In this document: piece after piece, positions 2-34,129 of the stretch
Layout of the letters: every line of letters begins with the position of its first letter
Numbering within the stretch: position 1 is the first letter of the stretch
Origin: Candidatus Omnitrophota bacterium
GTDB taxonomy: Bacteria; Ratteibacteria; UBA8468; MWAK01
Length of the DNA: 62,322 nucleotides
Assembly: GCA_043797665.1 (NCBI GenBank)
Contig: JAZDPL010000043.1
Span: 1-62,322, forward strand
Direction of reading: 5' to 3'
Program-made: the position numbers and the translations under genes
The notes under the pieces: generated by a model
Told to the model about the DNA's origin: nothing
Seen by the model: the letters and a program-made list of their open reading frames with translations, nothing else
Database searches by the model: none

Positions 2-3000
2 ATCGGAGGCGGGGACCCGTTCCCGATAATGGGAGCATTGACGGTAAGCGTACCGGGGGCGGGTACAGAGTCCTGGGACGTCAACACGACGCAGGCAATC
101 AAGTTCAAGAAGAAGGGGAACTTACAGAGTGCGGACGTGTACTATGCATATAATGGAACGACCTACACCAAGATAAACACCACCGCAATAAACATATCAG
201 GTGCGCCGGACGGAGAAGGGAACTACACGTTTAACTGGTACATTGACCCGGCCAGTACCATCTTAACCAGCGGATTTGCCGGGAAGATTAAAGTGACGGC
301 GGTGACTCCGACCACGCAGACGTCCGTAGAGGGTATCCAGAATAACGCGATAGAGGTTAAGGGCACAGTGACCTTGGATGACCCATCTGCCAGCGGCATT
401 TCCATGGCGGTTGGAAATAGTTACACAATCAAGTGGACCAAAACGGGTAATATCACCAGCGTACAATTACATTATTCAACCACTGGTGGTGGCGTTGGTG
501 GTTATCCTGATGGTAACCTGATTACGACGGTTTCCGCAACACCTCCCAGTCATTCCTGGACCGTAGCAGACAAGATAGGCAGTAACCTGCGGATACGGGT
601 AATGGATGCCAATAACTCCAATGTCTGGGATGAATCGAATAATGTCTTTACGATCGTGGGTAAGGTTAACCTTACCGTTCCTGACGGTGGCCAGATCTGG
701 ACTGTTGGTACTACCCATCAGATTACCTGGACAAAGACCGGTACTTTTAACTACGTGAAATTAGAGCATTCGGTTGACGGCGATACCAGTTATCTGGTAC
801 CGCCAATCGTTTCCCAGACCGATGCCGGTGCTTTATCTTATAACTGGGTTATCCCGGACACTATCGGCAATAACAATAAGATAAGAATATCCGACCCGAA
901 CTATCCGAATTTGGTTAAAGATGTATCAACTGACGTTTTTACCATCGTTGGTGCCTTAGACTTGACCGGTCCTAACGGTGCAGAGGTCTGGTACGTGGGA
1001 GATACCAACCGGAATATTACCTGGAACGCCATTGGTACCATTACTGCGGTCAAGATTGAATATTCCACCAACGGCGGTGGTGCCTGGTCTACGATTAATA
1101 ATGGGGCACCGGGTGTTTATGGTTCCAACACTTATTCCTGGACGCCCATTCCTGATGCGATCAGTAAGAACTGCCTGGTCAAAATTTCTGATCCGAACTT
1201 CCCGAGTGTCAGTGACCAGTCTGCGGCGGTCTTTGATATCAGACCCAAACTCACCGTAACCGTTCCCAATGGAAGCGAAAGGTGGCTGGTCAGTTCCAAT
1301 CAACTGATTAGGTGGACTCACACCGGCAGTATCGGTCAGGTTAAGATAGAGTATTCTACGAACAGCGGTTCAACCTATTCTAACGTTGTTGCTTCAACTG
1401 AAGGTGCAACTGACCAGTACCTGTGGACCAATATTCCGGATACTATTTCCGCCAATTGCCAGGTTAAGATTACCCGGGTGGATGATTCAGCAGTAGTCTC
1501 TGTTTCTCCGACGTTCAAAATCATAGGCAGTGTTAACCTGACCAAACCGGTGGTGGATGAAAAGGTCAAGATTGGTACTAGTTACAAGGTAGAATGGACC
1601 ATGGTCGGTTCCATCACCAACGTGCGATTGGAATACTCTACCAACAATGGTTCCAGTTTTGGTTATTCGATAGTCGATTCTACGCCAGCTAACGCGTTAA
1701 GTTACTTCTGGAATGTCGGTAATCCTCCTTCACCCAACTGTGTCATCAAAATCTCCGACTATAATGATGCCGTAACCTATGACACCTCTGAGGTATTTAA
1801 GATTCAGGCACAGTTTAACATTACCGACCCGGATGGCGGTGAGGTGTTAGAGGTCGGTAAACCCTATTCCATTAAGTGGAGCACCATCGGTTCGGTATCC
1901 ACGGTAAAGTTAGAATACACTTCGAATGGCGGTAGTACCTATAATACAATTACCGATTCTGTTTCCAACACCGGGAACTACTCCTGGACAGTTCCTCCCG
2001 TGATTACAACCCAGGCAAAAGTGAAGGTTTCTGATACCAACGATTCCACCTCTTATAACGAGTCTGCGGCTACCTTCAAGATTAGAGGAGTTTTGACCTT
2101 GACTGCACCCAACGGCGGTGAAACCTGGGTTGTTGGTTCTTCGCAAAATATCACCTGGCAGAGGTCTGGTCCCATCGCCAACATTAGATTAGATTACTCT
2201 ATCGACGGCGGGACCTCTTATCCGGGTACTTTACCCGGCAATCCGATTACCACATCTTACAGCGCTTCTGCCGGGACCTTCCCGTGGACCGTTCCGGATA
2301 AGTTAAGTTCTACCGCAAGGGTTAAGATTACCGACGTTACCGACGATACGGTCTGTGATACGTCGGACGCCAACTTTACCATTAAGGGTGTTATCACCAT
2401 TACCAGACCAATCGGCGGAGAGATATTCCGGGTGGGAAGTACCGAAAACGTTACCTGGACAAAGGTGGGTACCTTTGCCAACGTTAAGATTGAATTTTCG
2501 GTCGGCGGCGCTGCTTACGAGGTGATTCCGGGTGCGGAGTCAATAACCGCCACAAACGGTACCTTTGGCTGGAATATTCCGGATAGAATTAACGACAACG
2601 TAAAAGTGCGGATAAGCAATGCCGGTACCGAACCGGTAGACACTTCCACTTCCGGTTCCCTTGCCATTAAGGGTGTTTTGAAGATAGACGCACCGGTAGG
2701 TACTGACATCTGGAACGTTGACAAGTCATACGACATCTTATGGACCAGGACCGGTTCCGTTGCCAATGCCAAGTTAGAATACTCTTACGGTGGCGGAGCC
2801 TATCAGACAATTATCTCATCCGTGAATGCCAGTTTAGGTACGTATAACTGGACCATACCCAACACCATCAGCAATAATGTACGGGTCAAGATTACCCAGA
2901 CCACCGATAATTTAGTTGTTGATACCTCGCCGGTCTTCAAGATTGCCGGATACTTAGACCTTACCTATCCTAATGGCGGCGAGACTCTGGTTGTTGATGA

Positions 3001-6000
3001 GAATGTTCCCATTACCTGGGTAAGGCACGGAACGATTGCCGCGGTTGACCTCTATTACTCCAAAGATAACGGTGCCGATGGCTATCCCTATCAAATTGCT
3101 AATGCGGTACCTGCGGCTAACCAGAGTTATACCTGGCCGGTTCCGGACAGCATCGGAACCCAGGTGAAGGTAAAGATTGCTGATGACGATACCGGAAGTT
3201 ATACTTCCGCTGATACTTCTGCAGCCGCATTTGAAATCAGGGGTTCTTTAACCATTACCTCTCCCATCTTGAATGACGTCTGGATTTCTACCACCAGCCA
3301 TAACATTACCTGGGTGAGGCATGGTTCGATCGCCAATGCCAAATTACAATATTCCGTGAACAGTGGCAGTACCTTCCCGTACACCATTGTGGCTTCTATT
3401 GATGCTGGTTCCCTCTCTTATTCCTGGACCATTCCCAATACCACGGCCAAGAACGCGGCAATGGTCAAGATAACCAACTTAGCCGACAGCAATGTTTATG
3501 ATGACAGTGATATCTTTACCATCCGGGGCGGCTTTATCATTACCGCACCTACTGCGGTAACCAGGTGGCCGGTTAACAGTTCCCAGAATATTACCTGGAC
3601 TACTTTCGGCTCAATCGCTAACGTGATGCTGAAGTATTCTACCAATAACGGGGCTACCTGGAATCCCATTACCGTCGATCCAATAACCAACATTAATGAA
3701 TATCTCTGGACTATTCCGGTTGATGCCACATTGGGCAATCAGACTTTGGTGAAGGTCTATGACTCTAATGATGCCGATGCGGTTGGCATTTCACCGCAGT
3801 TTGTCCTCCACGGAATTTTAACGGTGAGTCAGCCCAACGGCGGAGAGCAATGGGGTGTGGGAACATCCCAACAGATTACCTGGACCAGGGTGGGTTCAAT
3901 CGCCAGTATAAAGTTGGAGTACTCCACCAATGGAGGTACTAACTTTACGACAATTATCGGTACGACCCCGGCCGCAAACCTCTCTTATAGCTGGACGATA
4001 CCGGAGAGCACCACTCTCTCTACCCAGTGTCTAATCAAAATTACCGATGTCAGTGATTCTTTAGTGGTAGATACTTCCAACAACTATTTTAAGATTAAAG
4101 CTTCCTTTACCGTGACCACTCCTAACGGTAATGAAACCCTGGTCTGCGGTGAAACAAAGACGGTTCAGTGGGGAACCGTGGGAGATGTTCCCTCTGTTAA
4201 TTTAGAGTATACGACTGACAGTGGCTCAACCTGGACCTTATTGCCCGGTATGCCTATTACCAACACCGGTTCAAGTAACTGGTCCATTCCGACCACGGTG
4301 ATTTCCAACCAGGTAAAAATCAGGGTATCTGATTCCCGGGATAGTTCGGCTTACGACACCTCAGATAATAACTTTAAGATTGTGGGTAAGCTTACCGTTA
4401 CCGTTCCCAACGGTGGAGAGAAGTGGGGAGTTGATTCTCAGCAATTAATCCAGTGGAATACGGTTGGTCCGATTGACAAGGCTAAACTCCAGTACCGGAA
4501 TCCCAGCGGGATTTATATCAATATCTTTGAGACGCCGATCGACAATAACGGTAATTATCTCTGGACCGTTCCCAACGCGATTACTTCGGAAGCAAAGATT
4601 AAGGTAATTGACGGAAATGACAGCGCGGTCCTTGATGAATCCAACAATTACTTTAAGATTATGAGGCAGTTTGACGTTACCGCACCGGTTGGTGGTCAGA
4701 CCTGGCTGGCTGGTAGTGCTCAACAGATAAGGTGGACTACTCACGGAACCTCCGGGAATGTCAAGTTGGAGTATTCCACCAATAACGGTGCAACCTTTAC
4801 GGTAATTACATCATCTGTCTCTGACAATGGTTTCTATGACTGGACCGTGGTAAACCAGGCCAGCGGTGATTGTTACATCAAGGTTTCTGACGCCGGAGAT
4901 GCGGATGCCTATAAATCTTCCGGTAAGTTTAGAATCAGAGCCATTCTTACGCTAACCGCACCTACCGGTGGTCAAATCTTAAAGTTTGGTGATAACTATA
5001 ATATCACCTGGACACAGATGGGTAAGACCGGCACCGTGAAGTTAGAATATTCCGATGATGATTTTGTCGGTTCCGATAACGTAATCTCAGACACTGTTCC
5101 TACCGGAGATACCGGTGGTTCTTATACCTGGACGGTACCTGACTTTATCCGGGCCACCAATGTGATAAAAGTAAGGGTCTCTGACCCCCAGGATAACGGT
5201 GCGGTCTCTACCTCCGGTGGCTTAAAAATCGTTACCAGAATTACGGTAAATAAGCCGGATGTCACCAGTAAGTGGTATGTTAATGACTACAATGATATTA
5301 CCTGGAACTGGACCGGTACGGTTCCCCGGGTGTCTCTCTACTATTCACCTTCCGGTGGTGCGGCCGGAACTTATGTCGCGATTACCGCGATTGACAATAC
5401 TGATGTTGATACTGCCCCGGCGACGCAGACCGGAAAATACACCTGGTACGTACCCAATAGTATCACGGCGCAACTGAAGGTTAAGGTCTGCGATGAGAGG
5501 GATGAGACCGACGGTTTTGGCGTTTCCGGCGGAGATGCCAAGATTCGGGCCAAGTTCACCCTTAGTGCTCCCAACGGCGGTCAGGAGTGGGTGGCGGGAA
5601 GTACGGAGACCATTTCCTGGAGTAATATCGGAACGGTTAATTACGTGAACTTAGACTATTCTACCAATAGCGGTGCTACCTATTCTTACAATATCGCCAC
5701 CAATGTGCCTAACGGAGCAAATGGAGGTAGTTACAACTGGACTATTCCTGAGAGTATCGTTATCTCCCGTACGGTTCGGGTAAGGGTAATGAGCAGTTCT
5801 GATTCTGATGCCTATGACGATTCTAATAGCGATTTGCGTCTCAAAGGAAAACTCCTGGTTACCGCTCCGGCCAGTTCCTCTTCCTGGAAGGTAGGCAGTA
5901 ATTATACCATTACCTGGAATACCAACGGTCCGATTCAGAATGTAGATATCCTCTATTCAATTAACAGCGGTTCCGCCTTCCCGTACACCGTTGCGGCAAA

Positions 6001-8536
6001 CCTTGCTAACAGTGGTTCAAAGACCTGGACTATTCCGGATACCGTAACTCCTAATGCGGTAGTCAGAGTCAGGGATGCTTCTTCCGGCAATACCGACGTC
6101 CTGGACGATTCCGAGGTATTCCGCATTGTGGGTTCTTTCACTCTGACTTCTCCCAATACCGGCGCGGAGAAATGGAAGGTTGCTTCCATCTACGCGGTAA
6201 CCTGGAACTGGACCGGTACGATTTCCAGCGTCAAACTTTCTTATTCCACGGACTCCGGTTCTACCTTCCCCTATTCTATCGGCACAGTTTCCAACGGTGC
6301 CGGCGGTTCCGGAAGTTACAGTTACAACTGGACCATTCCGGACACTATCTCTACCGCGGTAAGGGTTAAGATTGAAGACCCCAATGACTCCACCGTCTTT
6401 GATATCTCAGACAATAATTTCAGAATTCAGGCCACCTTCACGATTACCGCACCCAACGGCGGCGAGAGATGGGTTACCAATGAAGGCGGAGATGCCTGGG
6501 AGAATGACCTTGATTATAAACTAAGTGTTGGTCAGATTACCCAGTCCGAGAGGGATGCCCAGAGCAGACGGATTAAGTGGCAGACAGTGGGAACGCCACA
6601 GTACATTAAACTCTTATACTCCACGGATGGAAGTACCTATCCTTACGTCATAGTGGTTTCAATGTCCAATACCGGCACTTACAACTGGACGATTCCGGAT
6701 ACCCGAAGTACCACCAGCCGGGTTAAGGTGGTAGATGTTTACGACGATACCTCTTATGATGTTTCCAACAATAACTTTAAGATTGACTACTATCAGACTA
6801 TCTGGGAGTTACGTGATTTACTTACCAACGCCCTGGTAAGTCCCCTTGATGTGGAGAGTACCTCGGGTTGGCAAGAGGCGGGCTTGAGTCCGGACCCGGT
6901 AGAGCAGGGTGTGGTCCATGATGAGCCGTACGGTACCTGGACGGTTACCTGGAAGGCAACCGGCTTTGGAGACAAGAAGATTACCTATAACTGCAACCAG
7001 GACCAGCGAATCAAGGAATTTATGGAGACCACGGTTATCCATCTCTGGGAAGCGGAATCGGAGTTTACCTATGACCCGACTACCGACGACTTAGCCGTCA
7101 CCTCCTGGTTGGAAAGGGATGGAGGTCTCATTACCGGCGGTCTTTATTATGAACTTGATATCTATGACGATACCGGTCAACTTATTAAAGTGATAAAGCC
7201 GGCCGGTGAAGGAGAATACAGCGAAGATGCCCAGTATACCAATACCTCCGGACAGGACCCGGGTGAACCGGATGCGGCCGGTTTCTACCACCTCCTGTGG
7301 TCAGATTGTGGATTGGAATCCGGCGCGATATATTCCACGATTACCAAAATTCAGATCGGTACCGGTGCGTTATTCAAAACTTCCAAGGCGCTGACCGTTA
7401 CCGAACAGAAGACCACCCAGGAACTTACCGATACCATCAACGAACAACTCGACGTACCTTTAAGCCAGGTGCAGGCGGATGTTGCTACCGAATTGTCAAA
7501 TCAGACCGGCATAATAACTATTATGATGGGCCAGCAGACCGACACCATCAACAGTCAGATGACCGAACAGACCAATATTATCCAGACCAAGATGGACGAA
7601 CAGTCTAATCTTATCCAGACCAAGATGGATGAGCAGTCCCAGAGTATCAACGATGTCCTGGTCAGTATGGAGACCTCTTTTGACCAGTCGTTGACCGAGA
7701 TAAATGCTGCGACTGATGAAGTGAAATCCGTCGCGGTTAGAGTGGAGACCGCCGGTGAGAATTTAGAGAAGACACAGAAGAAGTACTCCGGAGACCTGAT
7801 TCTGCCGGAAAAGGTTATGGTCGGTGATGAAATGCAGATAACCTACCGGATTCAGGCCGGTCTGCATCCCACGGCGGATATCTATAACTCCGACGGAAAG
7901 GCGGTCCTGACCGATGTGCCGTTGGATGAATCTTCCGAATCACCAGGGTTGTATACTTATACCCTGAAGGTTGAATCGACCAAATTCAAGGGTGGTAAAC
8001 CGATTACCGTTATGGTGAGCGAACCGGTAACCGGCAATTTAGAGGTTGGTTCCACCGAAGCGGAGACTACGACCCTGACCGACATTCTGGGTCTGGTGTC
8101 GGGTCAAAGAGCCGCGATGAAAGACGTGGAAGCCAAGACCATTGCCGCGATTGAAGATATTGGCGCCGCCCTGATGGCTAACATCAAAGGGTTTGCCGGT
8201 TCCACCGAAGACGTATCCAGCGCCTTAGAATCATTAACGGTTGCCCTGGAAACGATTCCGGACCAGATTGCGGAAAAAGTTACCGAAAGGGGTGGCTTTG
8301 AGGATATGGGCCGGGTTCTGAATGACGTAGCCACCAAACTTACTGGCTTGGCCGGTGAGAAAGGATACGATATTGAGACGATGGTTACCGAAGCCCTGAA
8401 GGAGACACCTTCCCTTAAGTCAATCAGGAGGAAGACCGACAATATTGAAACAACGATTGAGGTAATCAAGGGGTTGGTACAGCAGATGTTGGCAGGTAAC
8501 GAAAAGCCGTTCGTGGTTGCCACCTTTGAGCGATAG
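2..8536 (+). CDS. Giant surface protein (5'-truncated at window edge): about 23 tandem ~100-aa Ser/Thr-rich Ig-like repeats (Kre9/KNH, GPI-anchored-like) plus C-terminal coiled-coil region
   Basis: Frame is open from base 2 (IGGGDPFPIM...), so the gene starts upstream. Recurrent motifs: PNGGExW, I(T/K)W, L(E/K)YSTxxGxT, Y(N/S/T)WTIPD, DxSxxxF(K/T)I. 23 W-x-x-P type module ends counted. Confidence 0.9.
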   Translation: MGGGDPFPIMGALTVSVPGAGTESWDVNTTQAIKFKKKGNLQSADVYYAYNGTTYTKINTTAINISGAPDGEGNYTFNWYIDPASTILTSGFAGKIKVTAVTPTTQTSVEGIQNNAIEVKGTVTLDDPSASGISMAVGNSYTIKWTKTGNITSVQLHYSTTGGGVGGYPDGNLITTVSATPPSHSWTVADKIGSNLRIRVMDANNSNVWDESNNVFTIVGKVNLTVPDGGQIWTVGTTHQITWTKTGTFNYVKLEHSVDGDTSYLVPPIVSQTDAGALSYNWVIPDTIGNNNKIRISDPNYPNLVKDVSTDVFTIVGALDLTGPNGAEVWYVGDTNRNITWNAIGTITAVKIEYSTNGGGAWSTINNGAPGVYGSNTYSWTPIPDAISKNCLVKISDPNFPSVSDQSAAVFDIRPKLTVTVPNGSERWLVSSNQLIRWTHTGSIGQVKIEYSTNSGSTYSNVVASTEGATDQYLWTNIPDTISANCQVKITRVDDSAVVSVSPTFKIIGSVNLTKPVVDEKVKIGTSYKVEWTMVGSITNVRLEYSTNNGSSFGYSIVDSTPANALSYFWNVGNPPSPNCVIKISDYNDAVTYDTSEVFKIQAQFNITDPDGGEVLEVGKPYSIKWSTIGSVSTVKLEYTSNGGSTYNTITDSVSNTGNYSWTVPPVITTQAKVKVSDTNDSTSYNESAATFKIRGVLTLTAPNGGETWVVGSSQNITWQRSGPIANIRLDYSIDGGTSYPGTLPGNPITTSYSASAGTFPWTVPDKLSSTARVKITDVTDDTVCDTSDANFTIKGVITITRPIGGEIFRVGSTENVTWTKVGTFANVKIEFSVGGAAYEVIPGAESITATNGTFGWNIPDRINDNVKVRISNAGTEPVDTSTSGSLAIKGVLKIDAPVGTDIWNVDKSYDILWTRTGSVANAKLEYSYGGGAYQTIISSVNASLGTYNWTIPNTISNNVRVKITQTTDNLVVDTSPVFKIAGYLDLTYPNGGETLVVDENVPITWVRHGTIAAVDLYYSKDNGADGYPYQIANAVPAANQSYTWPVPDSIGTQVKVKIADDDTGSYTSADTSAAAFEIRGSLTITSPILNDVWISTTSHNITWVRHGSIANAKLQYSVNSGSTFPYTIVASIDAGSLSYSWTIPNTTAKNAAMVKITNLADSNVYDDSDIFTIRGGFIITAPTAVTRWPVNSSQNITWTTFGSIANVMLKYSTNNGATWNPITVDPITNINEYLWTIPVDATLGNQTLVKVYDSNDADAVGISPQFVLHGILTVSQPNGGEQWGVGTSQQITWTRVGSIASIKLEYSTNGGTNFTTIIGTTPAANLSYSWTIPESTTLSTQCLIKITDVSDSLVVDTSNNYFKIKASFTVTTPNGNETLVCGETKTVQWGTVGDVPSVNLEYTTDSGSTWTLLPGMPITNTGSSNWSIPTTVISNQVKIRVSDSRDSSAYDTSDNNFKIVGKLTVTVPNGGEKWGVDSQQLIQWNTVGPIDKAKLQYRNPSGIYINIFETPIDNNGNYLWTVPNAITSEAKIKVIDGNDSAVLDESNNYFKIMRQFDVTAPVGGQTWLAGSAQQIRWTTHGTSGNVKLEYSTNNGATFTVITSSVSDNGFYDWTVVNQASGDCYIKVSDAGDADAYKSSGKFRIRAILTLTAPTGGQILKFGDNYNITWTQMGKTGTVKLEYSDDDFVGSDNVISDTVPTGDTGGSYTWTVPDFIRATNVIKVRVSDPQDNGAVSTSGGLKIVTRITVNKPDVTSKWYVNDYNDITWNWTGTVPRVSLYYSPSGGAAGTYVAITAIDNTDVDTAPATQTGKYTWYVPNSITAQLKVKVCDERDETDGFGVSGGDAKIRAKFTLSAPNGGQEWVAGSTETISWSNIGTVNYVNLDYSTNSGATYSYNIATNVPNGANGGSYNWTIPESIVISRTVRVRVMSSSDSDAYDDSNSDLRLKGKLLVTAPASSSSWKVGSNYTITWNTNGPIQNVDILYSINSGSAFPYTVAANLANSGSKTWTIPDTVTPNAVVRVRDASSGNTDVLDDSEVFRIVGSFTLTSPNTGAEKWKVASIYAVTWNWTGTISSVKLSYSTDSGSTFPYSIGTVSNGAGGSGSYSYNWTIPDTISTAVRVKIEDPNDSTVFDISDNNFRIQATFTITAPNGGERWVTNEGGDAWENDLDYKLSVGQITQSERDAQSRRIKWQTVGTPQYIKLLYSTDGSTYPYVIVVSMSNTGTYNWTIPDTRSTTSRVKVVDVYDDTSYDVSNNNFKIDYYQTIWELRDLLTNALVSPLDVESTSGWQEAGLSPDPVEQGVVHDEPYGTWTVTWKATGFGDKKITYNCNQDQRIKEFMETTVIHLWEAESEFTYDPTTDDLAVTSWLERDGGLITGGLYYELDIYDDTGQLIKVIKPAGEGEYSEDAQYTNTSGQDPGEPDAAGFYHLLWSDCGLESGAIYSTITKIQIGTGALFKTSKALTVTEQKTTQELTDTINEQLDVPLSQVQADVATELSNQTGIITIMMGQQTDTINSQMTEQTNIIQTKMDEQSNLIQTKMDEQSQSINDVLVSMETSFDQSLTEINAATDEVKSVAVRVETAGENLEKTQKKYSGDLILPEKVMVGDEMQITYRIQAGLHPTADIYNSDGKAVLTDVPLDESSESPGLYTYTLKVESTKFKGGKPITVMVSEPVTGNLEVGSTEAETTTLTDILGLVSGQRAAMKDVEAKTIAAIEDIGAALMANIKGFAGSTEDVSSALESLTVALETIPDQIAEKVTERGGFEDMGRVLNDVATKLTGLAGEKGYDIETMVTEALKETPSLKSIRRKTDNIETTIEVIKGLVQQMLAGNEKPFVVATFER
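7490..7660 (+). repeat. 33-bp / 11-aa (hendecad) coding tandem repeat in the coiled-coil tail of the giant protein
   Basis: TTATCCAGACCAAGATGGA at 7578 and 7611. Peptide QMTEQTNIIQT/KMDEQSNLIQT/KMDEQSQSIND. Confidence 0.8.
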
Positions 8537-9244: not shown

Positions 9245-9321
9245 GTCATTCCCGCATGTTTTTGGCGGGAATCCAGTGAATTACAAGTATGGATTCCTGT
9301 TTACAATCTGCAGGAATGACA
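9245..9321. repeat. GTCATTCCCGC...GGGAATCC / GGATTCC...GGAATGAC palindromic element (RPE/dRS3-like)
   Basis: Two inverted arms in the intergenic space, followed by GGTTCACTGAATATTT. Confidence 0.75.
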
Positions 9322-9363
9322 TTGTGGTTCACTGAATATTTATCATTTACCAAGGAGGTAGGA

Positions 9364-9945
9364 ATGTCTACGAGACAGAAGATAGCGGGATTTTTGGTGT
9401 TAGCGGTGTTATTTTTAGGATTTTCGGTCCTTTTGGTGAATGCCGAGCAGAAAAAAGAATCTGCTCCGGCGTCTAAAAAAGAAGCGACTGCGGCGGAGAA
9501 AGACCGCAAGTTCCTGGAAGAGAGTAAGAAGGAATTAAATAACACAAAGTGGTTAATATCCACGGGTCCGCTGTATGAGAATGTTTACACCGGCAGTGAC
9601 GTTCTCTACTTCTTTGAAAATCAGGTAATCTCCAGAGAATTTAAAGAAAAGGGGTATTCACCCACCAACTACAGTTTCCGACTTCAACCCGACAATTCTA
9701 TTATCTGGGAGACAATGCAGAGGGATAACAAGAGTGGGGATGTTGTCTTCTGGCGCGGGGACTACTATCCTTTGGAAAAGCGGATGAGGGGTTCTTTTAC
9801 AAAAACGTCCAAGGAAGGGAAGGTGGACAGCAGTTCTTTCCAGAGTACCGAATATAGCAAGATGGAAAAGTTGCCGCCGGAGTTGACAGCAAAACCGGAG
9901 GTTAAGGAAGAACCGAAAGTAGCAACACCTCCTGAGGGGGAATAG
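9364..9945 (+). CDS. Exported hypothetical protein
   Basis: AAGGAGG RBS before ATG 9364. Hydrophobic signal ending in VNA. Confidence 0.85.
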   Translation: MSTRQKIAGFLVLAVLFLGFSVLLVNAEQKKESAPASKKEATAAEKDRKFLEESKKELNNTKWLISTGPLYENVYTGSDVLYFFENQVISREFKEKGYSPTNYSFRLQPDNSIIWETMQRDNKSGDVVFWRGDYYPLEKRMRGSFTKTSKEGKVDSSSFQSTEYSKMEKLPPELTAKPEVKEEPKVATPPEGE

Positions 9946-9975: not shown

Positions 9976-10818
9976 TTGAGGAAAGGGCGTTTGTGGAAAA
10001 AAGGAAAACGTTTCCCGGAATTCTGCCTGTGTTTTTTTTTGTTTTTTCTTCTTGTTTTTGTCGGGAGTAATCTTCTTGCCCAGTCCTTAAGACCCGATGT
10101 ATATTTAAAAATTAAAGCAGTCAACCCCACCTCTAAAGAGCAGACCGTAGAGATAAAGAGTTACCTGCCTGCAGAAGTAATCCCGGAGGCTGTCGTGAGT
10201 ACCGGCGGCTTGGAATTGCGGTACGACGCGGAAAAGGCCTGTTATTATGTTTATAAAAAGGATGTCGCGGTCGCGCCCGGTGAAACCCTTATCTTTACTA
10301 TAGAGATAAAAGATGTCTGGGTCGTTCCGGAGGAAGAACTGCAGGGAATAAAGGTTCAGACGGAAACTATTCTCAGTCAAGTCCAGGGCGAATATCAGCG
10401 TACCGCCAAGGAGATTGCGGGGAAAATTTTCCAGGAATTGAAGAAGATTACCGAATCCCAAACCGAAGCAGGAAGGGGGGGGTTGGAGGAGCAGATTGCC
10501 GGCTATCGCCAGAATTGTGATGCGATTATTCAGGTTAAAGGAAAAATAGAGCGGATGAAAGTGATTCAGAGTCAGGGTGAAGCGGCTGCCAGGATGTCCC
10601 TCTATCCGGAAAAGGCGATGATGGAGAAGTCTAAGTTAAAGTCAGACGTACCTTCCAAAACTGCCACCTGGATGGTCATTTTTGTTATTATGGGTTTTAT
10701 CGCTATTTTAGGGGGAACATTTTTCTTCGCCTGGGTCCGTTCCAGCCGAAGTTTGGAAAAGACGACGTTGGAAGCCGGAAAGTCATCTTTTCCGGAATCG
10801 GAACCCCCAAAAGTGTAA
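9976..10818 (+). CDS. Membrane-anchored hypothetical protein (signal/TM, shared domain, coiled coil, C-terminal TM)
   Basis: Paralogous to 8550..9236. C-terminal TM WMVIFVIMGFIAILGGTFFFAW. Stop abuts the ATG of atpC. Start codon uncertain. Confidence 0.8.
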   Translation: MRKGRLWKKGKRFPEFCLCFFLFFLLVFVGSNLLAQSLRPDVYLKIKAVNPTSKEQTVEIKSYLPAEVIPEAVVSTGGLELRYDAEKACYYVYKKDVAVAPGETLIFTIEIKDVWVVPEEELQGIKVQTETILSQVQGEYQRTAKEIAGKIFQELKKITESQTEAGRGGLEEQIAGYRQNCDAIIQVKGKIERMKVIQSQGEAAARMSLYPEKAMMEKSKLKSDVPSKTATWMVIFVIMGFIAILGGTFFFAWVRSSRSLEKTTLEAGKSSFPESEPPKV

Positions 10819-11049
10819 ATGGAAGTAACCGTTATTAACCTGAAAGAGGTGATTTATCAAGGGAACGCCAAGAGTTTAATCGTCCCGGGTGAAAGTGGTG
10901 TTTTTGAGGTATTGCCTTTCCACAAAGATATTATCAGCCGGCTGATAAAAGGAGAGGTTGTAGTAGATGGTAATTTTCTGAAGATAAAGCGGGGGGTGGT
11001 CAAAGTGATTAAGAATGAAGCCACGGTGATTGTCGAGGCAGAGGAATGA
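10819..11049 (+). CDS. atpC: F-type ATPase epsilon-like subunit (N-terminal beta domain only)
   Basis: IYQGNAKSLIVPGESGVFEVLPFH matches the epsilon P-G-x-x-G-x-x-x-(V/I)L-P-x-H pattern. No C-terminal helices. Confidence 0.8.
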   Translation: MEVTVINLKEVIYQGNAKSLIVPGESGVFEVLPFHKDIISRLIKGEVVVDGNFLKIKRGVVKVIKNEATVIVEAEE

Positions 11050-11264
11050 GTCATAATATGACCCTGGTCCTGGTTATCGCCCTGTGCGTATTGGGGCCAA
11101 GTGCGGTTTTTGTAGCCAGCTGTGTTGCCAGTATCAGGGCTCTGGGACGAAATCCCTCCGCCTCTCCCAAGATATTTACCGCTTTAATCATTGCGCTTTC
11201 TTTTGCAACCGGTTTAGCATTTGTGGCTCTTTTGGTCGCTTTCCAACTATTGTCCGGAAAATAG
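11046..11264 (+). CDS. atpE: F-type ATPase c-subunit-like proteolipid lacking the ion-binding carboxylate
   Basis: 72 aa, two hydrophobic helices joined by the polar loop GRNP. ATGA overlap with atpC. No D or E in the protein. Confidence 0.75.
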   Translation: MSHNMTLVLVIALCVLGPSAVFVASCVASIRALGRNPSASPKIFTALIIALSFATGLAFVALLVAFQLLSGK

Positions 11265-11266: not shown

Positions 11267-11289
11267 GTAGCCGCAGGTTTCAGCCTGCG
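11267..11289. repeat. REP-like GTAGCCGCAGG-TTTCAG-CCTGCG palindrome
   Basis: Near-identical copy at 34228-34250. Confidence 0.7.
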
Positions 11290-14715: not shown

Positions 14716-15297
14716 TTAAGGGACTGGGACTGGTGCTGTTGCCACGAGCATGGAAATTTCAATACTGCAGCGGGCAACCGGTGATTTTGCGCCTTTGGGG
14801 GTGAGGTGAAACTTTTCCACCCTTAAAATCTGGGTGGAACATTCTATCCGTGAGAAGAGGACAAGAATTCTCTCCAAGGGGGCTTCACATTCTAAACTCA
14901 GAGTTTCCTTCCTGAACGGCGCTGCTTCTTCGGAACCGATGGGCCTGATATTCAACAGGTTAATATCTGAATTTTTAACCATGGTTTCTACTTCTTTCAA
15001 AAAAGTCAGTACCGTTTCGTCTTCAGGAGTCGTCTTTTGCGGGAAAATCTTTTCCAGGTATAACCGGTATTTTCTGCCTTCTTCTTCTATTTTATCCTTT
15101 CGGGCCAATATCTGAAGACTATTTCTGAGAGCCTTTCTCTTTTCTTCAATCTCCGTATCCAGAGATTTTATCCTGGAAACAATCGGAATCAAAATCACCC
15201 GGGAGATGAACGATATAACGAGTACAGAAACCGTAAGGTAAAAGAATATCTTTTCTCTTTTTGATAACTTAGCGATAAACGATAGAATCTTTTTCAT
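14716..15297 (-). CDS. PilO/GspM-like inner-membrane platform protein
   Basis: LSKREK + TM + coiled coil + ferredoxin-like C-terminus. Follows PilM/N. Confidence 0.75.
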   Translation of the reverse strand: MKKILSFIAKLSKREKIFFYLTVSVLVISFISRVILIPIVSRIKSLDTEIEEKRKALRNSLQILARKDKIEEEGRKYRLYLEKIFPQKTTPEDETVLTFLKEVETMVKNSDINLLNIRPIGSEEAAPFRKETLSLECEAPLERILVLFSRIECSTQILRVEKFHLTPKGAKSPVARCSIEISMLVATAPVPVP

Positions 15298-16751
15298 TCT
15301 ACGGCTCCTTTTTCCAACAAGGAGGTAATGTCGAAGTTCACGAAACTTTTGCTTTCCTCTTCTATTCTTTTTGTCCCCCCTGTTTTGACTTCCTTAAAAT
15401 ACTTCGATTTTTCCATTTCTTCGATCAGATTAAAGACGGACGTGGTGGAGACGGCAGTGCCCCTGATTACAAAGGTACCTCCCTTTTGGTCGAAAGTAAT
15501 TTCCGCGAGATACATTTCCGCAGGCGGAATCAAACGATATAACTCGGCCATAACTTCTAAGCAATAATTCTGCCGGGATAAATAACGTTGCACTAATTGA
15601 ATCTGAGAAAAGAGTTCTTCAATAGGCCCGGTTTTTTCACCGGTCTGCCGGTAGTCCTCGGTCAGGGTTTGCAGATAACTTTCTTTGCGATAAATTCTGT
15701 TGATTAATACTCCACCGATAAGTATCATAATGGTTATGAGCGAGATACCGCATTGAATCAGGTTACGGCTCCTCTCCTGGAATGCTTTTCGGGCTTTGAC
15801 CTCTTCCGGAATAAGGTTTATCGTGAGCCGGTCAGAAACAAAGAAAGGGGCAAGAACGTCACAAAAAGAAAACATCCGGTTTTCTTTAATTGTCTTTAAT
15901 GCATCCGGGGAGAGGGGCAAATCATGGTGATACGGAAAAGGGGTAAGGGACAAAGACAGGTTTTTCAGTTCTTCTTCCAGAAGGTTCGCATTCTCAACTG
16001 CGCCGGTTAAGAAAAGTTGTTTGGGGACCAGGTCTATTTCCTCCGCGCGGTAAGAGTCCAGAGATTTTTCCACCTCCGTTCTGATTTTTGGAAGAAACTC
16101 ATCTTTTTCCTCGGCCAAGGTCTGAGTCCCAAGGGAGATATTGCGGCTAAAGATTACCTTACCCCTGAGGAGAACCGTAAAATCAGAGGTTGTCTTGTCC
16201 AGGTGAAGAATTCCGACCGGTTCTTTCTCCTGTTCTAAATGTAAACTTCTACTTGCCAGGCTTCCCAGCGCTTCCGGTTTAAAGGCGACCCGGCTTATTT
16301 CTAAACCCGCCCGGTTTAAGATGCTGAATTGCCTCCTTATCGCATTGCGGTTAGCCAGCACCAGCAAGATTTTGGTATACTTCTCATGGTGACGTCCGAT
16401 ATCAAGATAATCAATGATAATCTCTTCCCGGGAATAAGGGCTGTATCGGCTGGCTTGTAAGTTGATGATTTCTTTTATCTCCTGGGGGTTGAGGGAAGGG
16501 ATGGCAATATTTTTGGTAACGCAGACGTTGGAGGGAACCAGGCTGATGACCGCAGGCTTTTTTTTGAGCCGGGCACGTTCCAAAAATTTCCTGATAACGG
16601 AAACAATTTCCTGGTCATTCAGGTTTTTGATGTCCTGCACCATCAGATTCGCTACCAGCCTCTTTTTCAGTTCGGAAATTTTACCGTGGCTGATTTTCAG
16701 AATCTGGCTGTCTAAGTCTACCACCAGGACATCTTTTGCTAAGTGCCACAT
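15294..16751 (-). CDS. PilM-PilN fusion (GspL-like) assembly protein
   Basis: Actin-like N-terminal part (VVDLDSQILK, LFLTGA), INLIP PilN motif, TM, then periplasmic domain. Confidence 0.85.
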   Translation of the reverse strand: MWHLAKDVLVVDLDSQILKISHGKISELKKRLVANLMVQDIKNLNDQEIVSVIRKFLERARLKKKPAVISLVPSNVCVTKNIAIPSLNPQEIKEIINLQASRYSPYSREEIIIDYLDIGRHHEKYTKILLVLANRNAIRRQFSILNRAGLEISRVAFKPEALGSLASRSLHLEQEKEPVGILHLDKTTSDFTVLLRGKVIFSRNISLGTQTLAEEKDEFLPKIRTEVEKSLDSYRAEEIDLVPKQLFLTGAVENANLLEEELKNLSLSLTPFPYHHDLPLSPDALKTIKENRMFSFCDVLAPFFVSDRLTINLIPEEVKARKAFQERSRNLIQCGISLITIMILIGGVLINRIYRKESYLQTLTEDYRQTGEKTGPIEELFSQIQLVQRYLSRQNYCLEVMAELYRLIPPAEMYLAEITFDQKGGTFVIRGTAVSTTSVFNLIEEMEKSKYFKEVKTGGTKRIEEESKSFVNFDITSLLEKGAVE

Positions 16752-16763
16752 AGGGATAACCCC

Positions 16764-17774
16764 TTACTCTTCCCGCCAGTACTTGATTTGCCCTTTTCGG
16801 TTACAGACCGCCACGATTGCATACGAATCATTCCGGTTATTTAATCGGGCAATACTTTTAATCATAAAGTTGTTTGACGCGGTAGTAAATCTGCCGGCTA
16901 AATTGCTGAATTGGCTTATCTCGTCCGGGCCCAGGACTACAAACTGATTCAGCGTGGCTACCACGTCCGGTGAAGTAAAGACATTATCATCCGGAGTACC
17001 TTCAACCCCGTCCTGCCCTTTTCTGAAAGTCAGGATTTTAGCGGCTAACCTTTCATCCAGACCCAGGGCTCGCAACACCTCAAGAGGTGCGGTATTAATG
17101 TTTATTTTGCCCTCGGTATATACCGTAACATATTCCCTGATTTGCTCAAAAATTTCCCGGCTCATTCCTTTAACCAAGAGCAACTCCTCCGGTATTTCGT
17201 ACGGGCCGTCTTTTGCCTCGTAAGGAGTCGAGGAGTAGCGGTAGTCACTGTCTTCAGCCCCGTATTGAGGATGTTCGTATGAAGAATTCTCGTCACGCCA
17301 GTCGATAATGCAGTAGGATAAATTTTCTGCTTTTGCCTCGTCTATATCGGTGACAATCTGGAAGAGACGCTTTAACGTTTTCTGGTCCGCGGTGTTGATA
17401 CTTATCTTGCGCTCTTCGTCCTCACAGCCATAGCGGGTTTGGGTTATCTTATTCTTATCGGTATCGAAAGACCGGTAATCATAACTAACGGTAAACCTTC
17501 CTTCTCCCACCGACTGTTCCCGGAAATCGGTGACATTATTGCTCCAGGTTCCATTCAAAGTGTCGTATTCCGGAGTTACGTCTTTCTTTATCTTCCAGGA
17601 GGCGGTTTTAATCCCGGCTTCGGCGATCAGATGCAGATTCTTTTTTACCTCCATTTTCTTTAAAAACAACAGTTTTTGACTGATGCCGAAACCTAAGTTA
17701 ACTGCAACAATGGTTAAGGTTGCCAAAGCAAAAAGGGCAATGATTAAGATGCTGCCAGACTTAGGGGCTGTCAT
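16764..17774 (-). CDS. gspK: Type II secretion minor pseudopilin GspK
   Basis: G|SILIIAL N-terminus. Motifs DEERKISIN, IIDWRD, EELLLVKGM, GKININTAP. Confidence 0.9.
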   Translation of the reverse strand: MTAPKSGSILIIALFALATLTIVAVNLGFGISQKLLFLKKMEVKKNLHLIAEAGIKTASWKIKKDVTPEYDTLNGTWSNNVTDFREQSVGEGRFTVSYDYRSFDTDKNKITQTRYGCEDEERKISINTADQKTLKRLFQIVTDIDEAKAENLSYCIIDWRDENSSYEHPQYGAEDSDYRYSSTPYEAKDGPYEIPEELLLVKGMSREIFEQIREYVTVYTEGKININTAPLEVLRALGLDERLAAKILTFRKGQDGVEGTPDDNVFTSPDVVATLNQFVVLGPDEISQFSNLAGRFTTASNNFMIKSIARLNNRNDSYAIVAVCNRKGQIKYWREE

Positions 17775-18330
17775 AGACAGCCCCTTTAACCGTCTTTCCA
17801 TCTAAGTAGATTGCGGTTATTTTTACCGAAACGGGTAACTTTTTTTCCTCCTGCCATTTATCTTTCCATTTGTATAACTTAGCATCTTCGTCGTAGACGT
17901 AATAACAGAAAGTCAGGTTTTTGATGTTTTTTACCAATATTTGTTCCGGAGGTTTTTTGTGTTGATAAACCTCAGAATAGCCTGCCTGGCTCTTTTTTAC
18001 GCTTTGGGTCAGAGTATCAAAAAAATAGGTGACCTGTCCGATACCCGTATTATTCTTCGTTCCGGGAAGGGTAATAATGGCAGGAAAAGATACCCGCTCC
18101 GGTGTCCCTTCAAACTTCATTCCGGTGTACCGAAGCCCGTTTTTCAAATCACGCGAGAACTTTTCCGAAAAAATCAGGAAATCTTCTTCCGGCGATTCCC
18201 TGGTCAGTACCTGCCATATTTTCAAACCGTTGTTGAGTGTCGTAAATACCGCAATGCCAATAATGCCTAAGAGAACCGAGACGAACAACATCTCCATCAA
18301 GGTAAATCCCCGTTTCGACGAAATATCCAC
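17761..18330 (-). CDS. Prepilin-type minor pseudopilin (GspJ/PilW-like)
   Basis: KRG|FTLME cleavage/methylation motif. C-terminal LPVSVKI. Confidence 0.85.
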   Translation of the reverse strand: MDISSKRGFTLMEMLFVSVLLGIIGIAVFTTLNNGLKIWQVLTRESPEEDFLIFSEKFSRDLKNGLRYTGMKFEGTPERVSFPAIITLPGTKNNTGIGQVTYFFDTLTQSVKKSQAGYSEVYQHKKPPEQILVKNIKNLTFCYYVYDEDAKLYKWKDKWQEEKKLPVSVKITAIYLDGKTVKGAVYDSP

Positions 18331-18342
18331 GGATATTCTTAG

Positions 18343-18396
18343 AGGTTTGATTTATCAAACCCGATAGGATACGGGCGTCATAAATGTCGGCCCTAC
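18343..18396. repeat. Degenerate GTAGGG/CCCTAC-family REP element
   Basis: GGTTTGATTTATCAAACC hairpin, ending in GGCCCTAC. Confidence 0.55.
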
Positions 18397-18413
18397 ATTT
18401 CAAGGGGATGGTA

Positions 18414-18683
18414 TTATTTACCCTTCACGGTCTTTTCTTCTAATTTCTTTTCCAGTTCCTGTACCCGTTCCCGTAATTTTTCTTTGCCGCCTTTTTTCAT
18501 CATATACTTTATTCTGCCCATCATTCCCAAGCCGCATAACATCAGGAGTACGCTGGCTAAGGAAGGGTTACAGGTAAAACCCGGCAAAGGGACCCTTTTG
18601 TTGAAAATCAGGGTATTGACACCAACGTCACCCAGGTACGACAATATAGCCACCGCTACCACAATTAACGCCCACACTATCAT
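18414..18683 (-). CDS. Small two-TM membrane protein with C-terminal coiled coil
   Basis: AAGGAGG RBS, two hydrophobic segments, KEKLRERVQELEKKLEE. Confidence 0.75.
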   Translation of the reverse strand: MIVWALIVVAVAILSYLGDVGVNTLIFNKRVPLPGFTCNPSLASVLLMLCGLGMMGRIKYMMKKGGKEKLRERVQELEKKLEEKTVKGK

Positions 18684-18713
18684 ACGCTTCCTCCTTTTTC
18701 ATTTTATTTTATA

Positions 18714-19100
18714 TTATGCTCCGGCATAAAAGGTCCGGGAAAGATTTATCTGCCGTCGGCCCTCCTTCCAGAAACAAGAAAGGGTTATCCGATACTCATT
18801 CGCATCTCTGGAGATGGACTGAATATCCCCTTGCCAGAAGACCGGTTTGTTTCTTACGATAAAAGTTCCACTATTGGAAGAGGGGAGGGGGGTTTTTGTC
18901 CGGCTGATTTTGTCGTCTATTTCCCAGGTCTTCCCATCAAGCCATTCCCGTACTTCCAGGGAAGTGGAATAATAACTTAACGCATTCACGCAGATGAGGA
19001 AAGATTGATAGATTACAACCAATCCAAACGAAAGAACCGCCAAGGTGACCATGATCTCTACAAAAGTAAATCCTCTTTTACGGTTAATTAGTGACGTCAT
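18714..19100 (-). CDS. Prepilin-type minor pseudopilin (GspI/PilV-like)
   Basis: RKRG|FTFVE motif. Confidence 0.85.
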   Translation of the reverse strand: MTSLINRKRGFTFVEIMVTLAVLSFGLVVIYQSFLICVNALSYYSTSLEVREWLDGKTWEIDDKISRTKTPLPSSNSGTFIVRNKPVFWQGDIQSISRDANEYRITLSCFWKEGRRQINLSRTFYAGA

Positions 19101-19518
19101 CTTCGGTACCGGCTTGTCCGTCCCTGCCTAAAGAAGACAGGTCGTACCCCCCGGTGTTACGTGTACCGGGGCATTTATACTGATATTCCTTTCCCCAGGG
19201 GTCAAGGGGTTTCCTTTCTAAGTAGGGTCCGTTCCAGTGTGTGGCGGAAGGGACTCTGGTCAGGAGAGCGTTTAATCCTTCTTCGGTGGTGGGAAAGGCC
19301 CCGTTGTCCAATTCGTATAGTTTTAGCCCGGTGGCAATATTGACGGTGATATCCGCTTTTGTCGCCGAGACCTTTGCCTGTTCCGAACGACCGGTCAGCC
19401 TGGGCATCGCCATGGCGGCTAATACTCCGATTATGATAACCACCAGCATCAACTCAATGAGCGTAAATCCCTGCTTAAAGCATGCAGGGGCAAGCCCCTT
19501 ACTTCGTTTCTTTTTCAT
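19084..19518 (-). CDS. gspG: Type II secretion major pseudopilin GspG
   Basis: G|FTLIELMLVVIIIGVLA, LYELDNGAFPTTEEGL, WNGPYL, DPWGKEYQY, SLGRDGQAGTEDD. Confidence 0.93.
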   Translation of the reverse strand: MKKKRSKGLAPACFKQGFTLIELMLVVIIIGVLAAMAMPRLTGRSEQAKVSATKADITVNIATGLKLYELDNGAFPTTEEGLNALLTRVPSATHWNGPYLERKPLDPWGKEYQYKCPGTRNTGGYDLSSLGRDGQAGTEDDVTN

Positions 19519-20309
19519 ATCGCCTCCCGAATATGTTTTTTCCATTGTGTTTCCAGATCGGACAGAGATTTTAAAGACGGACTGTAAGAAAACCGCAGTG
19601 CGTCTTCAAAAAGTTCCCCCTCTTTCAATCGTCTGCAGAAAGTCGTGAATTTGGTTGTCCCATGTTGAGTAATCAAAAAGTTCACCAGCGAAAGGGATTG
19701 GTGATAAAAGATATTGATGAACTTCTCGTATTTTTTGCTTTTCAGGTCAATGTTGTCCAGTTTAATCAGTACAAACAGGGGAATAAACCGGTTCTGCCTT
19801 AAAAGGTACGCATCGTATTCCTGGACGGAGCCACTTCTCCTTTTTTCTGTCCACTGCGCCACTCCTTCATCTAACCACAAAGGAGCATTATTTTTGAAAC
19901 CGATAAAATCCCGAAATATCAAATGGGTTAATTCGTGGGGCAGAATTGTTTCCATGAAGTTTTTATTTCCCCAGTAGGTACAGATGGTCCGCCGGTCATA
20001 AAAGGTAACCCCTTGAGTCCAGCCGGGTTGGTTGGTTGCGCTAATCATGGTATCGTGGTCCGGATAAGTATAGATTTTGGCACGCTCTTCCCAGAGCCAG
20101 AAATTTTCATATCTCTGGTAGCCTAAATCATAGGCAATGCTCTTATAATATTCTTCAGACGCGTTCAATATTTTTTGAGCAAAGTCTTTGTCCGCGGTGA
20201 AACAGACGATAAAATGCTGACTCCTGGTTTCTTTCCAGTTCTCTTCCGCCCGGGAAGATTGGATAAAGAAAGAATAAAAAATCAAGGCTGTGAACAGTAA
20301 CTTTTTCAT
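19515..20309 (-). CDS. Exported gluzincin metallopeptidase (peptidase MA-like)
   Basis: Signal peptide. HELTH (HExxH) plus PLWLDEGVAQ. Confidence 0.8.
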   Translation of the reverse strand: MKKLLFTALIFYSFFIQSSRAEENWKETRSQHFIVCFTADKDFAQKILNASEEYYKSIAYDLGYQRYENFWLWEERAKIYTYPDHDTMISATNQPGWTQGVTFYDRRTICTYWGNKNFMETILPHELTHLIFRDFIGFKNNAPLWLDEGVAQWTEKRRSGSVQEYDAYLLRQNRFIPLFVLIKLDNIDLKSKKYEKFINIFYHQSLSLVNFLITQHGTTKFTTFCRRLKEGELFEDALRFSYSPSLKSLSDLETQWKKHIREAI

Positions 20310-20325
20310 TGCGGACGCAGACCCA

Positions 20326-21531: not shown

Positions 21532-21532
21532 C

Positions 21533-21883
21533 TTAGGAGGTATACCTTGTAAGGCGCGCCTGGTCTGCGGAGGAGAGGTCAAGGAACAACACACTGACAT
21601 TATAAATTTCTTCTCCGTCTTCTTTAATCTTTATGGTGCGGAGAACATTGGCGGCACACTCTATCGGGTCCAAGCCATCCAATAGTTCTACCTTCAGGTT
21701 CAGGATGGTATTGGTCGGAATAGGCTGGTAAGAGACAAAAGCCAATCCACCGATGCTGAGGTCTTTTGCCACCACAAAATACTCTTTCGGGTCGGAAACC
21801 GGTCTGATTATTTTATACCTTACGTTGGTATTCTCTTCAAACCGGGTGAAAATCCTTTTTTCCGCTGGAGTTATTTCATTCAT
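21533..21883 (-). CDS. PilZ-domain protein
   Basis: EKRIFTRF (RxxxR) and DLSIGG (DxSxxG). Confidence 0.85.
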   Translation of the reverse strand: MNEITPAEKRIFTRFEENTNVRYKIIRPVSDPKEYFVVAKDLSIGGLAFVSYQPIPTNTILNLKVELLDGLDPIECAANVLRTIKIKEDGEEIYNVSVLFLDLSSADQARLTRYTS

Positions 21884-23594: not shown

Positions 23595-24068
23595 TCAATT
23601 ATTCATTTTTTCAATCATTCCAATCAGGGAACTCTTTATAAATTTCCGGTATTTGTCAATAACCGCGGTCATATCGTCAAACGAAGTGAGAACGATCTTC
23701 GCCTTTTTAGGGGCGACCTTTTTCGCCACCTCCGCAATGGTTGCGGCGTCCAGGGGGTCTACGACCGCTACCGTAACCGAGTTATCGTCTTCCGCGATGG
23801 GGAAACATTTATGGTCAATAATAAAAAAAGTCGGAAATTTATTGCCCAGGTTCAAATCCAGGTACATATTTTTGATGCCTAGATAAAGCATTCCGAACTG
23901 TTCCGCCAGGGTTTTTAATAACGCCACTTCGGAAATAATTTTCCTTTTTACCAGGATAGCGCCCAAGAATTCCTTGGAAAGATACTGTTCCATCAGGGCT
24001 TTCTGAAGTTCCTCGTCGGTAACGAGTCCTTTTTCAATTAAGAGTTCACCCAATCGTTTTTTACCCAT
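23595..24068 (-). CDS. Stand-alone MshEN / GspE-N domain protein
   Basis: RLGELLIEKGLVTDEELQKALMEQ followed by a second half-motif FLGAILV...LAEQ. No ATPase domain. Confidence 0.85.
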   Translation of the reverse strand: MGKKRLGELLIEKGLVTDEELQKALMEQYLSKEFLGAILVKRKIISEVALLKTLAEQFGMLYLGIKNMYLDLNLGNKFPTFFIIDHKCFPIAEDDNSVTVAVVDPLDAATIAEVAKKVAPKKAKIVLTSFDDMTAVIDKYRKFIKSSLIGMIEKMNN

Positions 24069-24079: not shown

Positions 24080-26309
<2,230 letters not shown>

Positions 26310-29712: not shown

Positions 29713-29746
29713 CGTTCCTCCTCTATAAAATTTATGGGTTAAGGGC

Positions 29747-34093: not shown

Positions 34094-34129
34094 CTGTTAA
34101 TAGCTTCCCCCCTTAGTCTCCTTTAGTTT

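Follow-up and report, generated by a model that had tools for sequence, protein, structure and literature searches.

F1Fo is an ion machine by virtue of two parts, subunit a and the carboxylate of subunit c; what, then, could a c-ring still do when both are missing? The question is raised by a 72-aa protein encoded in a 62,322-nucleotide contig of a Candidatus Omnitrophota bacterium, placed by GTDB in the Ratteibacteria (JAZDPL010000043.1; the whole of this stretch is called the window). An original prediction, made from the window alone, held that the protein forms an ion-uncoupled rotor. Here, we will distinguish between the uncoupling and the work that an uncoupled ring might perform. Our reading, to which we give a probability of about 55%, is that the protein is the ATP-driven, ion-uncoupled rotor of an a-less F-type ATPase whose genes lie with those for a type II secretion/pilus machine and for a giant surface protein. 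The family to which it belongs keeps c, never has an a of its own, and loses the carboxylate repeatedly, which amounts to a natural experiment in which the ring is kept for something else.

Subunit c and its ion-binding site

The translation of the 72-aa ORF contains no Asp or Glu, as had been predicted, and its alignment to ATP-synt_C in Pfam (PF00137), a check proposed at the same time, gives 26.4 bits against a cut-off of 24. Both the R-N/Q-P loop and the two-helix hairpin that characterize this fold family are found in the protein. The predicted structure is a two-helix hairpin (pLDDT 94.6) whose Foldseek neighbors are c-rings (TM 0.72–0.82), none of them reaching E ≤ 0.001, as one would expect of so small a hairpin.

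An HMM alignment to solved c subunits places T55 on the conserved Glu, in agreement with the prediction that helix 2 carries Thr (FATGLAF) at this site. Helix 1 was also correctly described as lacking the GxGxGxG motif, since Gly occupies only one of the five motif positions (V15, G17, S19, V21, and V23), and the loop is conserved to the point that R35, N36, and P37 never change in 228 c sequences. The ORF is thus confirmed as a genuine subunit c in which Thr has taken the place of the ion-binding Glu. Contigs of relatives span the c ORF in two DNA runs; in an RNA run with thin coverage, contigs were found over epsilon and the anchor gene and none over c.

Organization of the locus

Table 1. 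Features of the window that accompany the subunit c gene.
Feature	Position	Strand	Remarks
Giant Ig-like-repeat protein	29..8536	+	PF10342 repeats
Paralog of u280 without membrane helix	8550..9236	+	34–39% identity over 161–203 residues
Unknown protein u218	9289..9945	+	Weak relatives upstream of giant gene in other loci
Anchor protein u280	9976..10818	+	Beta-sandwich, three-helix bundle, C-terminal membrane helix; start codon uncertain
Epsilon, 76 aa	10819..11049	+	PF02823; N-terminal beta-sandwich only; overlaps c start by 4 nt
Subunit c-like hairpin, 72 aa	11046..11264	+	RNP loop intact; Thr55 at ion-binding Glu position
Thr55 codon ACC	11208..11210	+	Thr also in P0171 and P0172
Terminator-like hairpin just 3' of c stop	11272..11289	+	Pattern match only, weak
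Secretion/pilus genes after beta	14716..24068	-	MshEN protein, GspE/PilB, PilZ, GspF/PilC, peptidase MA, GspG, PilMN fusion; GspI-, GspJ-, and GspK-like pseudopilins, GspM/PilO-like
F1 beta	24080..25537	-	Walker A K188, E214/R215, Walker B D275; true start probably near residue 26
F1 gamma, divergent	25467..26309	-	PF00231
F1 alpha	26344..27837	-	Arginine finger R360 present
b-delta fusion	27821..28546	-	One membrane helix, b coiled coil, C-terminal part of delta only
Secretion genes before b-delta	28543..35570	-	Coiled-coil TPR protein, secretin, GspC-like, ExeA-like AAA ATPase; two proteins without clear family

The frame of the giant gene is open to the start of the contig, and its 5' end has probably been cut off. 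The genes for b-delta, alpha, gamma, and beta occupy the center of a complete type II secretion/pilus operon, 13–17 kb from c and on the opposite strand; alpha and beta lie within 10 kb of pilus or type II secretion genes (beta ends at 24080 and GspE/PilB begins at 23594). The operon, which is normally colinear, is split between c and b-delta in the window, and its two halves (29–11264 on the forward strand and 14716–35570 on the reverse) converge on two genes that separate them, one of 329 aa and unknown, the other of 831 aa and with HEAT repeats.

Relatives were collected by a scan of GTDB genomes from which the best 80 of 300 loci were taken, most of them titled Omnitrophota. Their usual order begins with the giant gene and an anchor domain that is either fused to it or comes after it, and continues with epsilon, c, b-delta, alpha, gamma, beta, GspE, GspF, and the pseudopilins; in 15 flanking stretches and 20 more distant loci this order extends, with some shuffling, to the whole secretion operon. 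The nearest relatives, L017 and L018, are split at the same point as the window, with b-delta, alpha, gamma, and beta on another contig. A search of 64 other genomes from the window's phylum found no module c, and the window alpha nests among Omnitrophota module alphas in the alpha tree, which together suggest transfer of the module. A protein that clusters with the window's pyrB product is named Ratteibacteria.

Several other elements can be found in and around these loci. Terminator-like hairpins number 8, against 8.9 expected in shuffles. Sigma-70-like sites occur on the forward strand at 8517–8545 (11/12 matches), just upstream of the small-gene block that ends in c, and at 8989–9017 (12/12 matches), inside a gene. 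A 32-nt inverted repeat at 9244–9321 has an arm found in numerous unrelated metagenome contigs, in the manner of a REP or mobile-element end, and a small hydrophobic ORF of 89 aa without a family lies between the GspI- and GspJ-like genes (18414–18683, reverse strand). In two other loci, the genes preceding the giant gene (L110:2451-3668 and L118:3944-5209) have an IS200-like (Y1_Tnp) N-terminal match and a weak likeness to u218. A receiver-GGDEF gene stands beside epsilon at L123:744-1643, similar-sized unlabelled genes occur in several other loci, and, with the MshEN and PilZ genes of the operon (window 23595–24068 and 21533–21904), there is a hint of control by c-di-GMP. Farther along the window, the forward-strand stretch 42420–59197, with a MazF-like toxin-antitoxin pair and, after it, a PLD-helicase, an Eco57I-type methylase, UvrD helicases, DUF3800, and a PD-(D/E)XK nuclease, is likely a defence and repair block.

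The F1 motor

The catalytic roles of K188, E214, R215, and D275 in beta and of R360 in alpha are established, and these residues are invariant in 54 beta and 65 alpha sequences, respectively. Beta and alpha also score above the cut-offs for TIGR01039 and TIGR00962. With alpha, beta, gamma, epsilon, and b-delta all encoded in the window and the catalytic residues intact, the ATP-hydrolysing motor that had been postulated appears to be present, judging from its genes. The delta part of b-delta covers positions 99–167 of the OSCP model only, and epsilon is without its C-terminal helices (the family ORF length is about 80 aa). The N-terminal stretch of alpha, of about 18 residues, is unconserved, which is no more than suggestive of a lost delta-binding helix.

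The search for subunit a

The claim that the window holds no atpB-like gene stands: PF00119 has no match at E ≤ 0.1 in the window or in the window genome (2.69 Mb, 86% complete). A home-made subunit-a profile, built on five sequences and without a separate positive control, gave a best E of 0.52 against this genome, and no subunit a was found with it. Neither was a subunit a gene found in 80 module loci, 15 flanking stretches, and 20 more distant loci. A hidden subunit a among the flanking genes was also considered and rejected; 32 unlabelled proteins, picked from 145 mainly for having several membrane helices, were scanned in Pfam, and none of them is an a, whereas 9 have no family. One should keep in mind that this absence rests on draft genomes and profile searches, which an unrecognisable a-substitute could escape.

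For the phylum as a whole, we surveyed 251 Omnitrophota genomes drawn evenly from the phylum of G043, with 90% completeness requested. Module-type c, recognized at E ≤ 1.7e-19 (canonical c matches fall at ≥ 1.8e-9), is present in 138 of them, and atpB in 151, always as a single copy. Among the genomes with the module, atpB is present in 90 and was not found in 48, one of which (G240) is represented by a 1.97-Mb contig in a 2.0-Mb genome. In nine of ten atpB loci examined, a Glu-bearing canonical c was read beside atpB.

The search of the window genome for atpB and other atpE copies, as had been proposed, found no atpB and a single further c-family gene, the four-helix K subunit of a V/A-ATPase of which A, B, K, and I are encoded. 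The A, B, and K subunits of a V/A-ATPase were found in each of the five module genomes without atpB that were tested. Since G240 and G043 have A, B, and K but gave no subunit I match with PF01496, that profile was not used to score absence.

The carboxylate site across the family

Among 19 close homologs, the site holds Glu in 15, Gln in two, and Ala and Ile in one each. The 80 nearest loci, with 81 c genes, hold 40 Gln, 36 Glu, three Ala, one Gly, and one Ser, but these loci were chosen by likeness to the query and overstate the loss of Glu. In the even phylum sample, where the site was read in 134 of the 138 module genomes (four are not listed; one copy each), the counts are 111 Glu, 11 Gln, five Ala, two Val, two Ser, and one each of Gly, Phe, and Thr; nine additional second c copies all have Glu. 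Glu alone therefore accounts for 83% of the sample, and Glu or Gln for 122 of 134. The idea that most orthologs are without Glu, which the nearest loci would suggest (45/81), was rejected on the even sample (23/134). In the ortholog survey called for by the original prediction, most orthologs keep Glu, but it has been replaced repeatedly by Q, A, V, S, G, F, or T. Thr is a lineage-specific state, not a family rule.

Parsimony requires at least 12 changes between Glu and non-Glu on a 66-row tree of b-delta, alpha, and gamma (FastTree, 998 columns), and 21 on a c tree of 228 rows that is poorly resolved. The site column changes 28 times in the 228 c sequences, against none for each of the three loop residues. 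Has the acid simply moved? In 63 non-Glu c rows there is no acid at mid-membrane positions, and five non-Glu members have an acid only near one end of the hairpin. As controls, Glu is present in all 15 c subunits read next to atpB, in 17 loci that include one genome twice, and in 54 of 55 glycine-motif hairpins. ATP synthesis by PS3 F1Fo is abolished when just one c subunit of the c10 ring carries E56Q (PMC8809890).

The genes that have lost Glu have a median dN/dS of 0.11 and a maximum of 0.32 (19 measurable of 990 pairs, with unsaturated synonymous sites), and thus stay under purifying selection. A site that was once essential is now only preferred, as would be expected if the ion cycle were lost; the strong preference for Glu or Gln means that it is still constrained, and it is possibly functional in some lineages. 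Because the window c is without a carboxylate, a is missing from the module family-wide, and the loss has recurred under purifying selection, ion-uncoupling is well supported, and the window ring very probably transports no ions.

The anchor domain

The protein encoded just upstream of epsilon and c, u280, has one strongly conserved C-terminal membrane helix, and in many relatives the domain is fused to the end of the giant protein. Its model (pLDDT 91.6) combines a beta-sandwich with a three-helix bundle and a long membrane helix in which W, F, and W are invariant in 61 sequences. A signal-peptide-like stretch can be read by eye at the start of the protein. No Pfam or NCBIfam family matches u280, an Atlas search returned only unnamed Omnitrophota clusters, and a fold search returned generic helical bundles only (best Z 10.4).

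The domain is present in 128 of 138 module genomes and in two of the 113 others, counts that include kin, are not independent, and show pathway membership, not contact. Its gene lies mostly just upstream of epsilon and c, and about 39 kb from c in G240 and G210. On account of its three-part fold, the invariant W/F/W, this co-occurrence, and its position upstream of epsilon and c, we tentatively regard the anchor helix as the best candidate for a membrane partner of the ring.

Proposed mechanism and alternative readings

What can be seen in the sequence is that alpha and beta keep their catalytic residues, that gamma, a short epsilon, c, and b-delta are present, and that a is not found. By analogy with F1Fo mechanics, alpha3beta3 would hydrolyse ATP and turn gamma and epsilon, which would grip the invariant RNP loops of the c-ring, and without the epsilon tail, hydrolysis would have one brake fewer. 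Active hydrolysis with gamma and epsilon docked on the c-ring is, in our view, probable. Since there is no a, there would be no protonation cycle, and Glu would become a mere packing residue that is usually kept, often Gln, and here Thr or Ala. Torque arising between the ring and the b-delta stalk would pass to another membrane protein, most likely the anchor helix (itself at less than even odds) and otherwise GspF/PilC, and might serve to move, tension, or help export the giant surface protein; these last steps are the least certain, although we lean slightly toward torque transfer through the ring to some membrane partner. Chemiosmosis would be left to the V/A-ATPase or to an ordinary F1Fo encoded elsewhere.

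The uncoupling that the original prediction inferred is thus upheld; of the bearing, torque coupler, and pore that it named, the pore is the least likely. Several facts weigh against our own reading: Glu is kept in most of the even sample, the secretion operon has its own GspE/PilB motor, so that F1 need not power pilus assembly, and the canonical atpB carried by 90 of the 138 module genomes could in principle be shared.

The alternative that survives best, which we nevertheless consider unlikely, is that the c-ring is a passive membrane tether or a free-spinning bearing, with F1 hydrolysing ATP next to the secretion machine, and that any useful work is delivered in the cytoplasm via b-delta, alpha, or beta. 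The available accounts of Mycoplasma F1-like ATPases describe function without homologs of c, a, or b (PMC3369863, PMC12994834), and the module c has only candidate contact partners. The near-invariant membrane residues that c has beyond its loop (G17, P18, V21, and F53), however, argue against it, as does a conservation of the anchor helix far above what a plain anchor would need.

A stator borrowed in trans, either a canonical a or the V/A subunit I, is improbable. Glu rings would then be ion-coupled, with Thr or Gln rings secondarily uncoupled or part of mixed rings. The predominance of Glu in the even sample fits such a stator, as do the frequency of atpB among module genomes and the V/A-ATPase of those tested that are without it. 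However, the residue at the site does not follow the presence of atpB, Glu being about equally frequent with it (73/87) and without it (38/47). No second atpB exists in any of the 251 genomes, a canonical Glu-bearing c already accompanies atpB in nine of the ten loci examined, and the window genome offers only the four-helix V/A K as another member of the c family.

We give still less credence to a ring widened into a channel that threads a polypeptide, as in the proposed translocase ancestors of rotary ATPases. Larger residues at the helix-1 glycines of c could enlarge a ring, and in the module these glycines are replaced by larger residues, among which V21 changes only three times in 228 rows. 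The module also sits in a secretion locus, and a short delta accompanies larger predicted rings in the main text of a 2026 preprint (10.64898/2026.10.01.756066). Against this, the conserved gamma and epsilon would cap the ring in a normal F1Fo, the lumen-lining helix 1 is hydrophobic, and the signal-peptide-like start of the anchor suggests ordinary export.

That the Thr is a sequencing error, as the original prediction had itself allowed, or the gene a decaying relic in the window genome, is largely refuted: the splitting of the locus into two converging halves and the 64 same-phylum genomes in which no module c was found would fit, but the codon ACC would need two or three substitutions to become GAA/GAG, Thr is also found in two further members of the 90% cluster of the window c, from other sources, the nearest homolog cluster has Ala at this position, all module frames are open, pN is 0.16–0.17 against L017 and L018 (pS saturated), and both of these are split identically.

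Under the reading that we prefer, a rotor driven by ATP and uncoupled from ions, one may go further and propose a phylum-wide third use of the F-type machine, in which a stator-less Fo uses its c-ring as a pure mechanical rotor and passes torque via a conserved single-helix anchor to surface proteins so large that they run to thousands of residues. We offer this as a speculation with odds somewhat below even. If true, it would drive surface motility, prey attachment, or export in ultra-small Omnitrophota, and rings that naturally carry Thr, Gln, or Ala would prove, through evolution, that ions no longer pass through the ring. The family, for its part, puts right annotations that count the module genes as an incomplete ATP synthase, provides acid-free small c subunits as material for ring-assembly and torque assays, and bears on how rotary ATPases switch between ion pumping and mechanical or secretory work.

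Relation to known systems

Seymour et al. (2023) described "symbiotic" non-respiratory ATPases beside type-4a pilus genes in Omnitrophota and proposed that they serve in attachment and motility (PMC10066038). These loci are the same system as the module; two contigs of their Table S8 correspond to our loci L037 and L051, and the window alpha falls in a starred, non-respiratory clade together with L037, a contig labelled symbiotic in that table. The text and tables of that study that were available treat alpha, beta, and b/delta only; none of the 29 "symbiotic" rows covered (of 66) lists atpE or atpB, and in the 23 places covered (of 30) atpE appears only in loci with atpB (PMC10066038). The same portions make no mention of subunit c and the drift of its carboxylate, of the short epsilon, or of the anchor domain (PMC10066038), and the window copy differs further in lying in a Ratteibacteria genome and in being split in two. 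The system has therefore been known in outline since 2023; what is added here is genetic evidence suggesting that a c-ring persists without ion chemistry, along with a candidate partner. The published "non-respiratory" label, a phylogenetic guess, becomes a testable mechanism. No paper on carboxylate loss in the module c was found in a literature search, with subscription papers and bioRxiv supplements outside its reach.

The module shares with canonical F1Fo homologous alpha, beta, gamma, epsilon, b, partial delta, and c subunits, the catalytic residues, and the c loop. It differs in being without subunit a, in an epsilon without C-terminal helices, in a b fused to the C-terminal part of delta, and in its location in a secretion operon; the window c, in addition, is without the carboxylate.

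In the sections of the N-ATPase report available, that enzyme resembles the module in being a second-copy ATPase, in a b that carries a C-terminal delta part, and in a similar epsilon-c-b-alpha-gamma order (PMC2881411). Unlike the module, where none of these was found, it has an operon, atpDCQRBEFAG, that encodes a, AtpQ, and AtpR, and also a full Na+ site (PMC2881411). TIGR03321 aligns to residues 13–219 of b-delta at 42 bits, against a cut-off of 225. The window c has Phe at what we take to be the helix-1 position of the Na+-ligand Gln/Glu, and with no acid on either helix, the Na+-binding residues of the N-ATPase c are absent. Derivation of the module from an N-ATPase by loss of atpQRB would fit the gene order and the b-delta fusion, but finds no support in the alpha tree: module alphas branch outside both the N and the canonical alphas (support 94 and 81), in a quick, weak tree whose outgroup is not monophyletic.

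The best functional analogy is with the Type 2 (gliding) and Type 3 (MIB-MIP) F1-like X0 ATPases of Mycoplasma, in which, from the parts of these papers available, F1 is reused at the cell surface without an ion-pumping Fo (PMC3369863, PMC12994834). Their seven-gene cluster replaces a, b, and c with unrelated X0 membrane proteins (PMC3369863, PMC12994834), whereas the module keeps c and b. The module alpha scores 393 and 285 bits against the Mycoplasma-type families (cut-offs 600 and 520), and beta is also below cut-off.

Giant genes have been tied to secretion loci by West-Roberts et al., in the text accessible (10.1101/2023.11.21.568195), and by a 2026 preprint whose available text also notes apparently incomplete F1Fo sets (10.64898/2026.06.07.730766). 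A second 2026 preprint, on evolution, does not name Omnitrophota in its main text, and its supplements may show such neighborhoods (10.64898/2026.10.01.756066).

Unusual c paralogs and fusions

Second c paralogs occur in several module loci (L130:5046-5270, L147:14643-14873, L143:13618-13818, and L073:988-1495), and those of L130 and L147 are without the RNP loop; such paralogs would allow mixed rings. Two module-type c proteins, P0022 and P0024, consist of two fused hairpins with Glu in both. In P0026 (968 aa) and P0031 (447 aa), many c hairpins are strung in a single chain, with Trp in places that would normally have Gly, as though UGA coded for Gly, which is the code of Gracilibacteria.
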